Shown here: positions 45,824 to 57,057 of the stretch, piece by piece | How the letters are laid out: the number at the start of each line of letters is the position of its first letter | Position numbering within the stretch: the stretch's first letter is position 1 | NCBI GenBank assembly: GCA_963696045.1 | Contig: CAVOIR010000009.1 | Location: 15,427-79,426 of the forward strand | DNA from: an uncultured Chloroflexia bacterium | GTDB lineage: Bacteria > Chloroflexota > Limnocylindria > Limnocylindrales > CSP1-4 | Reading direction: 5' to 3' | DNA length: 64,000 nt | Made by a program: the position numbers and the translations under genes | Notes under the pieces: model-generated | What the model was told of the DNA's origin: nothing | The model's input: the letters and a program-made list of their open reading frames with translations, nothing else | Database searches by the model: none

Positions 45824-47960
45824 TCAGGCGCGGCCGGCGGCGACCTCGTCCTCGCGGGTCCGACCGGCCAGGCGGATGAGGTCCTCGTGGAGCTCGAACC
45901 AGACGCCGTGGTAGCTGTCGACGCGCGGTGAGGCGATGAAGCGTCCGTCACCGCTGGCGGCCGCCTCGGCCGCGGCCGACAGGCGCCGGGCGTAGCTCTG
46001 CAGGCGGGGCAGGCCCGCCACGAGCGGCGCGATCCAGGCATCGGCATCGGCGTGCAGGGCGGCGAGACGGGCCAGCACATCCGCGTCGTAGGCGGCGTCG
46101 GTGTGATCGTTCAGCACCTGCCGGCCGTCCATCTCTCGCATCTGCCAGGCGGTGACGATGACCTTCATGCGCCCGTCGAGCGCGATGAACCCGTCGAGCG
46201 CGGCATCGGCCGCGGCCGGCCCCATGGCCTGTCGGTCGGCCGCCAGCATCTCCGCGGCCAGAGACTGGCCCGTCGCGGTCAGGCTGAACATGCCGCCGCT
46301 GGCACTGGCGATGCCGGTCCGCCGCAAGCGCGTCGAGGAGCCGGGCAGCCTCCTCGGGCGCGACCCCGAGGGCCGGGGCCAGCAGGTCCGGGGTCACGTA
46401 GCCCTTGATGGTGAGCGCGCGGATGGCGTCGTCACGCGTGGCCTCGCCTGCCCCGGGCGCGGTCGGCTCGTCGACCATCGTGCGCACCTCCCCTCCCCCG
46501 ATGTCGATCCCCAGCTCGGCCGCCCAGGCGAGCAGCACGGCGGCCTCCGGCACGGTCGAGTGGGTCGCAGCGACGACGCCGGCGTAGACCTCGCCGCTGT
46601 GCCCATCGATGCTGAGCACGTCGCCCTCACGCCAGCTGCCCCCGCCGATCGATCACCCGTGCCGTCGGTCACCTGGACCTCAGAGGCTCCGACGACCGCC
46701 GGGATGTCCCAGCCCCGCGCCACGACCGCGGCATGGCAGGCGAGTCCGCCGGTCGACGTCAGGATGCCGACCGAGCGGGCCATCCCGTGGACGTCGTCGG
46801 GAGAGGTCTCCGTGCGCACGAGCAGCACCTCGGTCCCCGCATCGGCCATGCGCACGGCAGCCTCCGGCGTCGTGGCGATCGCCCCCGATACGAGGCCCGG
46901 TGACGCTCCCAGACCGCGGGCCACCACGGGGACGTCGATCCGCGCCTCACGCATGACTGAGGGCGGGTCGGCCAGGATGTCGCGCACGCGCTCGACGGCC
47001 TCGGCACGCGAAAGCGGGAAGTCGGGATCCTCCGCCATCTCGATGGCCATCCGCAGGGCGGACTGGGCGCCACGCTTGGCGATGCGGTTCTGGAGGAGCC
47101 ACAGCCGCCCCTCCTCGATGGTGAACTCGATGTCGCAGGCGTCGCGATGATGGCGCTCGAGCAGGCGCGCGACGCTCCGCAGCTCGGCCGCCACTCGCGG
47201 CAGCCGGTCATCGAGGACGGCGATCGGCTCTGTCACGTGGGTGCCCGCCACGACGTCCTCGCCCTGGGCGCCGAACAGGACGTCGCCGTAGAGGACGTCC
47301 TCCCCGGTCGCCGGGTCGCGCGTGAAGAGCACGCCCGTGGCCGAGTCCGGTCCGCGGTTGCCGAAGACCATGGCCTGCACGACGACGGCCGTCCCGAGGT
47401 CCGCGGAGATGCCTTCTCGCTCCCGGTAGGCCTTCGCCCGATCGCTGTCCCAGCTCCGGAAGACGGCCTCGATCGCGTGGCGAAGCTGAAGCCATGGGTC
47501 CTCCGGCACGTACGTGTCACCGACGACGTCGCGGAACATCGTCACGAGGCGGGCGCGGCAGGCCGTGGCGAAGGCAGCATCCCCGGCGGCGCGCGCGAGC
47601 CCCGGCGTCGCCGCGTCGGTCAGCCCGAGGTTGAGGATCGTGTCGAGCATCCCGGGCATGGACACGGGCGCCCCGGAGCGCACGCTCACGAGCAAGGGGT
47701 CAGCGGGCGCACCGAATCGACGGCCCGTCCGGCCTCGACCTCGGCCATCCGCTCGCGCAGCTCCTCGTCCATTCCGGCCGGCCAACCCAGTACTCGCGTA
47801 GGCACGACACGCTTCGGTGGTGATGACGAATCCCGGGGGGCACGGGCAGCCCGAGGTCGCGGGCCATGACCACGAGGTTGGCGCCCTTGCCACCGAGCAG
47901 CGCCGTCAGGGCCTCCGGGTCGAGCGGGGGCGGCGCGTCGAACGGGTAGGTCCAGGGCAT
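45824..47960 (-). CDS. Truncated pyruvate-phosphate-dikinase-like protein: ATP-grasp plus phospho-His swivel domain plus a novel ~230-aa C-terminal region, with no PEP/pyruvate TIM barrel (frame changes)
   Basis: ORF 47700..47960: [43 protein letters not shown]. ORF 46394..47893: [11 protein letters not shown]...PLLVSVRSGAPVSMPGMLDTILNLGL...VVVQAMVFGN...GVLFTRDPATGE...GAQGEDVVAG...[17 protein letters not shown]...VLLVRTETSPDDVHGMARSVGILTSTGGLACHAAVVARGWDIPAVVG. ORFs 45948..46619 and 45824..46327 give the C-terminal extension, ending ...SYHGVWFELHEDLIRLAGRTREDEVAAGRA*. Confidence 0.8.
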
Positions 47961-47975
47961 GCGGTCCAGCGGCCC

Positions 47976-55268: not shown

Positions 55269-55284
55269 GGGTGGCCGGCGCTCC

Positions 55285-57057
55285 CTAGGCCCCGACGCCG
55301 GCGGGAGCCGCGGCAGCGACGCCCGACAGGATCTCGACCACGCCGGCATCGCCATCCACGCGGATGCGGTCGCCGGTCGTGATCCGGTACGTGCCGACGG
55401 AGGTGCCCACGACCGCCGGGATGCCGTACTCGCGGGCGAGGACGGCCGGGTGGGCGACGAGGTCGCCCGCGTTGGTCACGACCGCGATGATCTTCCCGTA
55501 CAGGACCTGCCACGCCGGGTTGGTCATCTCGCACACGAGGATCTCGCCCGTCTGGAGGCTGTCGAACTCGTCGGTGGACATGACCACGCGAGCGACGCCC
55601 TCGACGACGCCCGGCGAGCCGCCGATGCCAGTGATCGTCTCGCTGTCCATCTCCCGCGGGCGATGGAACTTGTCCGGGAAGCCCCACAGGCTGAGGTACG
55701 GGAAGGCGAGCTGGGTCTCGGTGACGGTGCCCACCCAGTCCCGGGGCCGGATCGTCTCGGCCGCGGCGCGCTTGGCTCGGGCCGCCGCCACGATGGCGCG
55801 ACCGCTCTCCGGATCGGGCGCGCCGATGAACTCTCTCAGCGCGTTGTAGCGGAAGTAGACCGTGTCGTCGGGCTGGTCGAGCATGCCCATCTCGACGAGC
55901 TTCTCGCCGAGGGCGATGAGCACGAGTCGGACGTGGGCGTTGGCGCCCTGGTCGATGTAGAAGTGGTGGTCCGGCGTGAGCGGCGCCATCTTGAGGTTGA
56001 TGTCGTTGGCGGTGCGCATCTTCTCGAGCGCCTCGCCCTCGAGGCCCGCCAGGATCTCCTGCGACGCGGCTTCGATGTCGGCTTTCAGGGCCGCCACCTT
56101 GGACGGGTAGTCGTAGTCCGAGGCGTACTGGTCGCGGACCAGCTGGATGACCGGGTTCATGTCCTCGCGGAAGCTCGGGTACACGAACTCGTGGCTCCAC
56201 ACGGCGTGCCAGCCGAACTCCTTCTGGTACGGGACCACCCGCTCGTCGATGAAACGGCGACCGCGGTCGCTGGCCTGCAGGGCGGGGACGATCTCGACGG
56301 CGGTCGCGTGGTCGAAGGCGGCCTTGAGCGTGGCGTCGCCCTTGATCTCCTCCTTCATCTCCCAGAGCGCCCGGATCTTGTCCCAGTTCCGGTCGTCGGC
56401 GGAGTTCTGGAGCCGGCCCAGGAGGACGTCGTCGACCTTGCCGTGCGTCTCCTGCATGACCGCCTTGAGGTTGAGCGTCGCGCTGAGCTGCGCGAAGTTC
56501 AGCATCCAGTGGATCTTCCAGTGGCGGTCGTGCATGTCGATGGCGTCCTCGAGCAGGACCGCCACGTCGGCCAGGCTCAGCTCGGCCTTGCGGTCGAGCA
56601 TGGCCTCGATGTAGTCGAAGTTGCGCTGCATCTCGGGGACGAAGCGCGTCCGCCACCAATGGGTGAAGTTGTTGCCGTAGACCGGCAGCACCGCGCCGAG
56701 GTAGGCGCCGATCTTGCCCGCGTAGTCGTCGTCCTCGGGGACGATCGGGTTGGTCCGGAAGTTGTACTCCTGCGTGTCGACGATCAGGCCCTTCTCCGCC
56801 GGGACCGCCGCCGTGTACAGATAGCCGTTGACGTTCTTGTAGATCCAGTCCGACGCGAAGGGCGTTCCGAAGCGGCGGAACATGTGATCGCACGACAGCC
56901 ACCAGCCGCCGATGTCCTCGTACATCGGGCTGAGCGGCTTGGGGCAGTGGAGGTCGTCGAAGACCCAGAACAGGAGCTTCTCGGTCTCGGACGTCCATTC
57001 GATGGGGAATGTCTCGTCCCCCAGGAACTGCCCGAGGACCTCTTCCTTGAGCGGCAT
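55285..57057 (-). CDS. PEP-utilising-enzyme mobile (swivel phospho-His) domain protein with a ~470-aa N-terminal domain of unknown function (PpsA-like; uninterrupted 590 aa)
   Basis: ORF 55285..57057: MPLKEEVLGQFLGDETFPIEWTSETEKLLFWVFDDLHCPKPLSPMYEDIGGWWLSCDHMFRRFG... It has no GGKGANL-type ATP-grasp start. C-terminus: ITGIGGSPGVVEGVARVVMSTDEFDSLQTGEILVCEMTNPAWQVLYGKIIAVVTNAGDLVAHPAVLAREYGIPAVVGTSVGTYRITTGDRIRVDGDAGVVEIL (swivel domain with conserved His). SD GAGGAGG upstream. Confidence 0.8.
   Translation of the reverse strand: MPLKEEVLGQFLGDETFPIEWTSETEKLLFWVFDDLHCPKPLSPMYEDIGGWWLSCDHMFRRFGTPFASDWIYKNVNGYLYTAAVPAEKGLIVDTQEYNFRTNPIVPEDDDYAGKIGAYLGAVLPVYGNNFTHWWRTRFVPEMQRNFDYIEAMLDRKAELSLADVAVLLEDAIDMHDRHWKIHWMLNFAQLSATLNLKAVMQETHGKVDDVLLGRLQNSADDRNWDKIRALWEMKEEIKGDATLKAAFDHATAVEIVPALQASDRGRRFIDERVVPYQKEFGWHAVWSHEFVYPSFREDMNPVIQLVRDQYASDYDYPSKVAALKADIEAASQEILAGLEGEALEKMRTANDINLKMAPLTPDHHFYIDQGANAHVRLVLIALGEKLVEMGMLDQPDDTVYFRYNALREFIGAPDPESGRAIVAAARAKRAAAETIRPRDWVGTVTETQLAFPYLSLWGFPDKFHRPREMDSETITGIGGSPGVVEGVARVVMSTDEFDSLQTGEILVCEMTNPAWQVLYGKIIAVVTNAGDLVAHPAVLAREYGIPAVVGTSVGTYRITTGDRIRVDGDAGVVEILSGVAAAAPAGVGA

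Follow-up and report, generated by a model that had tools for sequence, protein, structure and literature searches.

A probable two-protein small-molecule dikinase with two phosphohistidine swivels and an additional module in a Chloroflexota operon

The DNA considered here is a stretch of 64,000 nucleotides from an uncultured Chloroflexia bacterium (assembly GCA_963696045.1, contig CAVOIR010000009.1, positions 15,427 to 79,426; hereafter the window), with a base composition of about 72% G+C. From 57057 down to 45824, its minus strand carries nine co-directional genes with every gap shorter than 40 nt. A first-pass annotation, made from the letters and their translated reading frames, had placed two swivel-His proteins at the first and last positions of one operon, and this arrangement holds: gene A, which opens the operon, joins a domain related to the rifampin (RIF)-binding domain of rifampin phosphotransferase (RPH) to a phospho-His swivel, and gene B, which closes it, joins an ATP-grasp of the pyruvate phosphate dikinase (PPDK) type to a swivel of its own and a further C-terminal module (CTD). 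We favor, with moderate confidence, the reading that A and B each supply one half of an ATP-dependent dikinase for small molecules, of the RPH/PpsAB/HpeHI kind but with a hitherto unreported build. The features of the two genes and of the operon between them are as follows:

55285 to 57057, minus strand: gene A, 590 aa, RPH/HpeH-like acceptor-binding domain and phospho-His swivel (open reading frame, Pfam, profile match)
55648 to 57057, minus strand: N-terminal ~470-aa domain of gene A, putative acceptor-binding module (conservation, RPH homology of aa 234-470, NCBIfam alignments)
55327 to 55629, minus strand: swivel (phospho-His) domain of gene A, motif VTNAGDLVAH, His536 codon 55450-55452 (Pfam)
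45824 to 47960, minus strand: gene B, ~712 aa after reading through five 1-nt frameshifts; ATP-grasp, swivel and CTD, no TIM barrel
46916 to 47960, minus strand: ATP-grasp (PPDK_N) of gene B (Pfam, conservation in 39 orthologues)
46578 to 46915, minus strand: swivel of gene B, motif TSTGGLACH, His codon 46733-46735 (Pfam)
45827 to 46436, minus strand: CTD of gene B, ~205 aa, winged helix then helical domain (AlphaFold2 model, profile)
54549 to 55268, minus strand: GntR/FCD transcriptional regulator (Pfam PF00392 and PF07729, synteny with locus L001)
53646 to 54534, minus strand: unk295, ~295 aa, no Pfam family; P-loop-like GGESNHGKS motif, PEPCK/HprK-like fold, 3 frameshifts
49997 to 53626, minus strand: three-subunit molybdoenzyme of the xanthine dehydrogenase (XDH) family, frameshifted in the window (Pfam)
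52761 to 53626, minus strand: FAD subunit of the XDH-family enzyme
52282 to 52758, minus strand: 2Fe-2S subunit of the XDH-family enzyme
49997 to 52267, minus strand: Mo subunit of the XDH-family enzyme
49075 to 49965, minus strand: cyclase-family (PF04199) protein, 2 frameshifts in the window (Pfam)
47976 to 49044, minus strand: Zn-dependent alcohol dehydrogenase, 1 frameshift in the window (Pfam)

Gene A is a single uninterrupted open reading frame (ORF) with a G+C fraction of 0.95 at third codon positions (GC3). In agreement with the first-pass annotation, the peptides quoted for it are present and it shows no ATP-grasp motif: its sole local Pfam match is the PEP-utilizers swivel PF00391 (aa 502-572), with neither PPDK_N nor a TIM barrel detected, and an exact look-up of the protein returned no record. 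The region preceding the swivel had been called unknown and proposed as the acceptor-binding module; the label no longer applies and the proposal stands. Thus, PF27448 (Rph_4th) is called in all gene A homologues in precomputed Pfam annotation, and a profile built from 13 family members aligns aa 234-578 with residues 533-867 of the Listeria protein RPH-Lm (E 3e-34), i.e., with the final ~220 residues of the rifampin-binding domain and the His domain, the first ~230 aa having no sequence alignment to RPH. NCBIfam alignments cover most of gene A and match it to RedH/PigC, PRK06241, PRK08296 and the C-terminal two thirds of RPH-like "PEP synthases", with scores far below the PRK08296 cut-offs (at best 163.7 versus 578 bits for NF006153, the others 108-132 versus 650-730) and far below that of rifampin phosphotransferase NF041857 (101.9 versus 999), whose ATP-grasp gene A also lacks. 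Across 79 orthologues, His536 of the swivel and the long N-domain motifs are invariant, the very conserved ones being DRHWKIHWMLNF, GWHAVWSHEF and APLTPDHHFYIDQGANAH; in the swivel motif TNAGDLVAH the window has D at the position of the second G, which many orthologues keep. Gene A hence combines a RIF-binding-like domain with a swivel bearing the catalytic His (PF27448, PF00391 and the RPH alignment), and its N-domain is by sequence a recognisable acceptor-binding module of a separate subfamily. The same build has been described for two-component aromatic dikinases, whose substrate-binding/His components are HpeH, CreH and PpsA (PMC12167813).

The other half is of the PPDK type. Residues 1 to ~470 of gene B align to residues 1-531 of C. 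symbiosum PPDK at 415 bits, the alignment ending near 531, and Pfam finds no PF02896 (PEP-utilizers_C TIM barrel) in any frame-corrected piece, so the earlier claim that both proteins lack the barrel is borne out. Among 39 orthologues, the ATP-grasp motifs GGK, VSVRSGAPxSMPGM, TGVLFTR, QGEDVVAGTH, IEFT and WxLQxRxxKR are invariant, as is the swivel motif TxxGGxxxHAAV, His included. Gene B is not, then, an ATP-grasp-only partner of the ~40-kDa, phosphoenolpyruvate (PEP) synthase (PEPS)-like kind: it is PPDK-type, with its own swivel and the CTD. An intact orthologue (L001) passes the cut-off of NF004531/PRK05878 (505.9 versus 456; the largest in-frame piece of the window gene reaches 443) and fails those of PPDK TIGR01828 (516 versus 843) and PEP synthase TIGR01418 (92 versus 740). 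Judged by these matches, gene B is a fusion of a VadK-like truncated PPDK (PRK05878) with a winged-helix and helical module. Truncated PPDK-like proteins had been described in the first-pass annotation as of unknown role, a statement that is superseded, as the family now has a characterized member: VadK (Rv1127c) of Mycobacterium tuberculosis uses ATP/Mg to phosphorylate its own swivel His, and its operonic partner Rv1126c improves its solubility and is removed only with a 2 M NaCl wash (PMC13400623).

The ATP-grasp and swivel originally reported for 45824-47960 (minus strand) are thus present; they do not lie in an intact ORF in the window, the motifs being spread over three reading frames. 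A frameshift-aware alignment with an intact 719-aa orthologue places five 1-nt events near 47839 (+1, in a C-run), 47787 (+1), 47731 (-1), 46658 (-1) and 46315 (+1); correcting them yields a protein of 712 aa (start 47960, stop 45824-45826) that is 64% identical to the orthologue end to end, with all motifs intact. At these sites (46313, 46650 and 46659, 47729, 47796, 47831/2), contigs from 4 independent public runs, which represent related strains (90-99% alike), differ from the window by 1-nt indels. Given these indels in independent contigs and the existence of intact 719-aa orthologues, assembly errors are the most likely source of the frameshifts; a pseudogene confined to this strain is still conceivable, as the runs compared came from related strains and none from the same strain. 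About a dozen further frameshifts affect the neighbors of gene B, i.e., unk295, the XDH subunits, the cyclase and the alcohol dehydrogenase, which brings the density to ~17 single-base events per 9.3 kb of operon (45824-55268), most of which fall on short G/C runs; more are found beyond gene A, in the cupin, transketolase and ABC genes, and gene A itself (1.77 kb) is free of them. Such a pattern is typical of unpolished long-read assembly, so that an ORF-based reading of the window needs frameshift-aware alignment, and the closest relatives of the window are long-read soil metagenome-assembled genomes (MAGs) of Chloroflexota.

The pairing of A and B had been put forward from their positions in a single operon, and comparison across genomes supports it. 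Anchoring on gene A gives 80 loci, all in Chloroflexota MAGs, mostly Limnocylindria, with the operon syntenic. Gene B is present in 57 of the 57 loci that extend more than ~6.6 kb past gene A, the contigs of the other 23 all ending too early, and no ATP-grasp other than gene B lies within 10 kb of gene A in any of the 80. In Thermomicrobium roseum, a sister operon encodes a gene A homologue with 44% identity and lacks B, having in its stead a classical ATP-grasp-only protein of the PEPS type (323 aa); operons of this kind therefore make use of B or of a plain grasp. The T. roseum operon also holds genes for a Liv ABC transporter, a UPF0261 protein, a GntR regulator, a cyclase, an XDH-like enzyme, an FAH protein and an ABM monooxygenase, and, being from a cultured organism (L162; DSM 5159 megaplasmid NC_011961.1, 45303-74952), it offers a tractable model for the substrate.

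Beyond the Chloroflexota, the same three parts occur as adjacent separate genes on plasmids: an A-like protein of 572 aa, a CTD-like protein of 206 aa and a truncated PPDK of 506 aa in Diaphorobacter sp. HDW4B, and truncated PPDK, CTD-like and A-like proteins of 542, 201 and 503 aa in M. avium and of 522, 200 and 543 aa in M. branderi, with an order that varies among the three plasmids. The CTD-like proteins are 35-41% identical to residues 521-719 of B, with the motifs kept, and the plasmid-borne actinobacterial truncated PPDKs are 43-48% identical to gene B; in all, free ~200-aa CTD homologues adjoin truncated PPDKs on 6 plasmids, and one actinobacterial plasmid has the CTD and an A-like gene without the PPDK. 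Most of the long metagenome loci anchored on the CTD hold the XDH/unk295/A operon. The association is not obligatory, as B also occurs without A: a second context runs Liv-ABC, CMD, Y_phosphatase3, B, UPF0261 (MarK-like kinase) and aldehyde dehydrogenase (L159:1900-13500, L115, L120, L130), and in other A-less loci B stands beside FAH and a racemase.

Some of these clusters have further constituents. A DUF7064/DUF7065 protein of ~300 aa, not homologous to unk295, adjoins the A-like gene in Diaphorobacter (L163:4308-5222), in M. avium (L164:10691-11581) and on a contig that encodes a 1256-aa fusion (L170:5753-6736), often with an APH-family phosphotransferase and a Rieske oxygenase or P450 gene nearby. 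On plasmid pRB98 of Rhodococcus oxybenzonivorans (L165, 550072-562566), a CTD-like gene and a truncated PPDK are preceded by genes for a swivel-only 183-aa protein, a 525-aa hypothetical protein and an AMP-binding enzyme and followed by those for a biotin carboxyl carrier, a biotin carboxylase and a carboxyltransferase, a layout reminiscent of the kinase and biotin-carboxylase logic of the Hpe and Acv systems.

The CTD itself was at first seen as a ~230-aa segment unrelated to the TIM barrel that it displaces; the lack of relation stands, and the segment is better described as a separate, widespread module of ~205 aa that is fused here to the truncated PPDK. Structure prediction, which had been suggested for it, gives a confident AlphaFold2 model (pLDDT 93.5, from 51 sequences), in which Foldseek against the PDB recognizes the winged helix (MarR/DtxR type), with nothing at E <= 1e-3 and the helical part unmatched. 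The invariant motifs TxWQ, NDHxD and SPRVDSYHxVWFELHE are found in the module, and the winged helix is the least conserved part of gene B, with almost no invariant residues in the 39 orthologues. A CTD profile searched against 1.84 billion cluster representatives retrieves 1849 at E <= 1e-3. Among the best 150 of these 1849 matches, 73 are free-standing CTD proteins of 185-225 aa, whose names are uninformative; about 20 have the grasp-swivel-CTD architecture of B; 7 are proteins of 650-783 aa in which an A-like N-domain and swivel precede the CTD (e.g., MCK9249530.1 of Solirubrobacteraceae); and 2 are full fusions (P0476 and P0442). P0476 (1256 aa) reads Rph_4th, PEP-utilizers, PPDK_N and PEP-utilizers in precomputed annotation, followed by the CTD; its residues 227-536 match the gene A profile with 99.7% probability and residues 540-1246 are 50% identical to gene B. 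Both full fusions keep both swivel His motifs. As the CTD is found free, fused to either partner or in a triple fusion, it would most likely serve as a docking adaptor between the donor and the acceptor protein. The polar residues NDH and DSYHxVWFELHE, which form an invariant cluster in it, could also mark a ligand or catalytic site. Rv1126c is the probable candidate for the counterpart of the CTD in M. tuberculosis; if it is that, the high-salt wash would fit a tight complex of a truncated PPDK with the CTD module.

What the proposed dikinase would act on may be approached through the genes between A and B. The Mo subunit of the XDH-family enzyme has 4-hydroxybenzoyl-CoA reductase alpha (1rm6_A, 312 bits) as its nearest PDB relative, the next hit having 228 bits and quinoline oxidoreductase, CO dehydrogenase and xanthine dehydrogenases scoring at most that; it lies far below the HcrA family cut-off. 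The [4Fe-4S] insertion of 4-hydroxybenzoyl-CoA reductase is unlikely to be present, a judgement based on the length of the FAD subunit, which has just 287 aa. The protein unk295 has no sequence match in Pfam, NCBIfam or PDB and is among the most conserved products of the operon (median 84% identity; motif LFLGGESNHGKSM; the L001 copy is at 12501-13388). Its AlphaFold2 model (pLDDT 87) matches ATP-dependent PEP carboxykinases (PEPCK; E ~1e-6, TM 0.45-0.49) and then HPr kinase/phosphorylase. This protein was considered as a missing ATP-grasp partner of gene A and set aside, there being no family match and a modelled fold of the PEPCK/HprK-like P-loop kind rather than ATP-grasp; PDRP-type regulation of the swivels by unk295 found no support, as neither swivel (GGLACH, GDLVAH) has the regulatory Thr two residues before the His. 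Going by the modelled fold, unk295 could act on the phospho-product of the dikinase, e.g., by carboxylating or decarboxylating it as a PEPCK would.

In about 25 loci, a UPF0261 (Tm-1/MarK-like ATP-binding) gene lies immediately upstream of gene A, e.g., L002, L014, L017 and L022 (about 7850-9100) and L001:1-618; in the window this position has no UPF0261, and in T. roseum the UPF0261 gene is accompanied by one of the "phosphoenolpyruvate hydrolase family". UPF0261 is the family of the aromatic kinase MarK (PMC12624787). Related clusters contain Rieske oxygenase, FAH, VOC and P450 genes. The kinship of the Mo subunit, the UPF0261 genes, the fold of unk295 and the genes of the related clusters together point to a pathway for the catabolism of a phenolic or enolisable compound that includes a phosphorylation. 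The substrate of the dikinase is probably a phenolic or enolic intermediate of that pathway, whose genes comprise those for a 4-hydroxybenzoyl-CoA-reductase-like molybdoenzyme, a cyclase, dehydrogenases and a Liv-type ABC importer.

Around the operon, the cupin, split transketolase and Liv-type ABC transporter genes lie upstream and divergent from gene A, with just two modest palindromes in the A-cupin intergenic region by inverted-repeat search. Downstream of gene B, ~900 nt without an obvious gene precede a convergent SDR gene; this stretch (44906-45824) has no ORF with coding-like GC3 and could hold a hidden frameshifted gene, and a scan of 44000-58000 gave no Rfam match. Farther off, at 39361-42714 on the minus strand, an ORF of ~1100 aa resembles, by eye, an Lhr-type DEAD/DEAH-box helicase and seems unrelated to the operon.

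From the domain identities, the conserved catalytic motifs, the gene linkage and the fusions, a route of phosphotransfer can be inferred. B would bind ATP in its PPDK-type ATP-grasp and phosphorylate its own swivel His, as its relative VadK does; the phosphoryl group would then pass to the swivel His of A, either by direct transfer from one His to the other or by the A swivel visiting the ATP-grasp of B; and A, with a small substrate bound in its RIF-binding-like N-domain, would phosphorylate a hydroxyl or enol of that substrate. The CTD, placed where PPDK has its PEP/pyruvate barrel, would dock the donor to the acceptor protein. Both swivels appear to be needed, because both His are kept even in the single-chain fusions, and this retention points to a relay from His to His or to the phosphoryl group having two separate destinations. 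That A would depend on such a donor is consistent with HpeHI, CreHI and PpsAB, in which the protein with the RIF-domain and swivel requires an ATP-grasp partner (PMC12167813).

Several observations weigh against this two-part dikinase and have to be set beside other ways of reading the locus. Among the enzymes of the operon, gene B is conserved least (median 66% identity versus 78-84% for the others), and it evolves as fast as the GntR regulator. In about a quarter of the long loci anchored on B (e.g., L159, L115 and L111), an A-like gene is missing within 10 kb, and where plasmids of S. atratus and Rhodococcus ZPP carry the truncated PPDK and CTD, none lies closer than 5 kb. In the literature VadK figures as a regulatory kinase that acts on the methylcitrate cycle and is reported to bind pathway enzymes, not as the donor of a small-molecule kinase (PMC13400623). 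The CTD begins with a MarR/DtxR-like winged helix, is annotated as MarR-like or as a MarR family regulator in several records, and may bind DNA. Further, we know of no precedent for transfer between two swivel-type His domains. From the A-less loci it follows that B can work without A, and a VadK-like regulatory role becomes a serious rival: B would be a regulatory His kinase or one-component sensor whose autophosphorylation follows ATP status and whose CTD binds DNA or enzymes so as to tune the pathway, and A would be fed from elsewhere, e.g., with aryl phosphate made by a UPF0261 kinase. The UPF0261 genes directly upstream of A, the occurrence of B beside UPF0261 and a phosphatase, and the ability of HpeH alone to move phosphate between aryl phosphates (PMC12167813) all speak for such a division of labor. 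Yet a GntR regulator is already present in the operon, the winged helix is precisely the part of B that is conserved least, and the window operon has neither a UPF0261 gene nor another ATP-grasp, while in T. roseum a plain ATP-grasp occupies the equivalent place; the fusions of the CTD and of whole B to A-like enzymes also fit a catalytic complex better. We therefore regard a regulatory B as unlikely, though deserving of more weight than the readings that follow.

One of these makes B a dikinase in itself, with the CTD as a new acceptor or catalytic domain in place of the TIM barrel and with A drawing on an ATP-grasp encoded elsewhere. The position of the CTD, its invariant polar cluster (NDH, D..H..WFELHE), which is suggestive of a ligand or metal site, and the occurrence of B without A would accord with it, but a private acceptor domain is hard to square with a module that is also found free or fused to A-like proteins that have no grasp, and the 57 loci provide no grasp-only gene near A; we hold it to be quite improbable. 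Least credible of all is that the split is an artefact, i.e., that B is a full-length PPDK or PEPS whose TIM barrel is hidden by frameshifts, as the first-pass annotation had allowed, or a decaying pseudogene. The five frameshifts in B and the dozen or so in its neighbors do invite the suspicion, which is largely refuted by the intact orthologues of 707-799 aa that share the build and are barrel-less, by the absence of PF02896 from every frame-corrected piece, by the read-through protein with its full-length identity and intact motifs, and by the independent contigs without the frameshifts, all of the events being 1-nt indels, mostly at short G/C runs.

The preferred reading of A and B as one dikinase can be placed among known systems. 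Dikinases of the RPH/PpsAB/HpeHI type inactivate rifampin and carry out the first step in degrading phenolic and lignin-derived compounds. PpsAB of Thauera, CreHI of Corynebacterium, HpeHI of Rhodococcus and AcvAB of Sphingobium resemble it in having a protein with a RIF-binding-like domain and a C-terminal swivel (T-x-x-G-x-x-x-x-H), a separately encoded ATP-grasp and a place in a catabolic operon. In these systems, however, the partner is a ~40-kDa PEPS-like protein consisting of the grasp only, whereas B adds to a PPDK-type grasp its own swivel and the 205-aa module; and PpsAB-type operons have a biotin or UbiD carboxylase, in contrast to the molybdoenzyme and PEPCK-like protein of the window operon. 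RPH and the PigC/RedH ligases comprise the same three functional modules (ATP-grasp, acceptor-binding domain and swivel His), with RPH as one polypeptide with one swivel rather than two proteins with two swivels and an extra module. To our knowledge, the characterized RPH/PpsAB/HpeHI-type dikinases have one phosphohistidine carrier each, so the remark in the first-pass annotation that two swivels in one system would be unusual is apt. From C. symbiosum PPDK, B retains the ATP-grasp and swivel and lacks the PEP/pyruvate TIM barrel. The truncated PPDKs of the VadK/PRK05878 family correspond to B 1-~470, a PPDK ATP-grasp and His domain with no barrel; the ~200-aa module that is fused in B is a separate adjacent gene in Actinobacteria and Diaphorobacter, and VadK is described as a methylcitrate-cycle regulator, whereas B is operon-linked to the acceptor-binding component of a kinase. 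By domain composition, A and B lie outside the two-component family as defined, since a VadK-type protein, which brings a His carrier of its own and a third module, stands in for the grasp-only partner; we found no paper on this three-part build or combination.

Thus, a build with two carriers and a third module is widespread across Chloroflexota, Actinomycetota and Betaproteobacteria, its parts being encoded separately, fused in pairs or all fused. One might go further and suppose that a phospho-His relay from B to A on a CTD platform, with A then phosphorylating a small molecule, is the ancestral job of the VadK/Rv1126c family, such that the tuberculosis virulence kinase would descend from the donor half of a catabolic kinase; this we offer as a tentative and rather doubtful extension. 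In any event, the proposed dikinase provides a concrete biochemical hypothesis for the actinobacterial truncated PPDKs, including VadK and its tightly bound Rv1126c, and points to unexplored catabolic pathways in the abundant Chloroflexota of soil.

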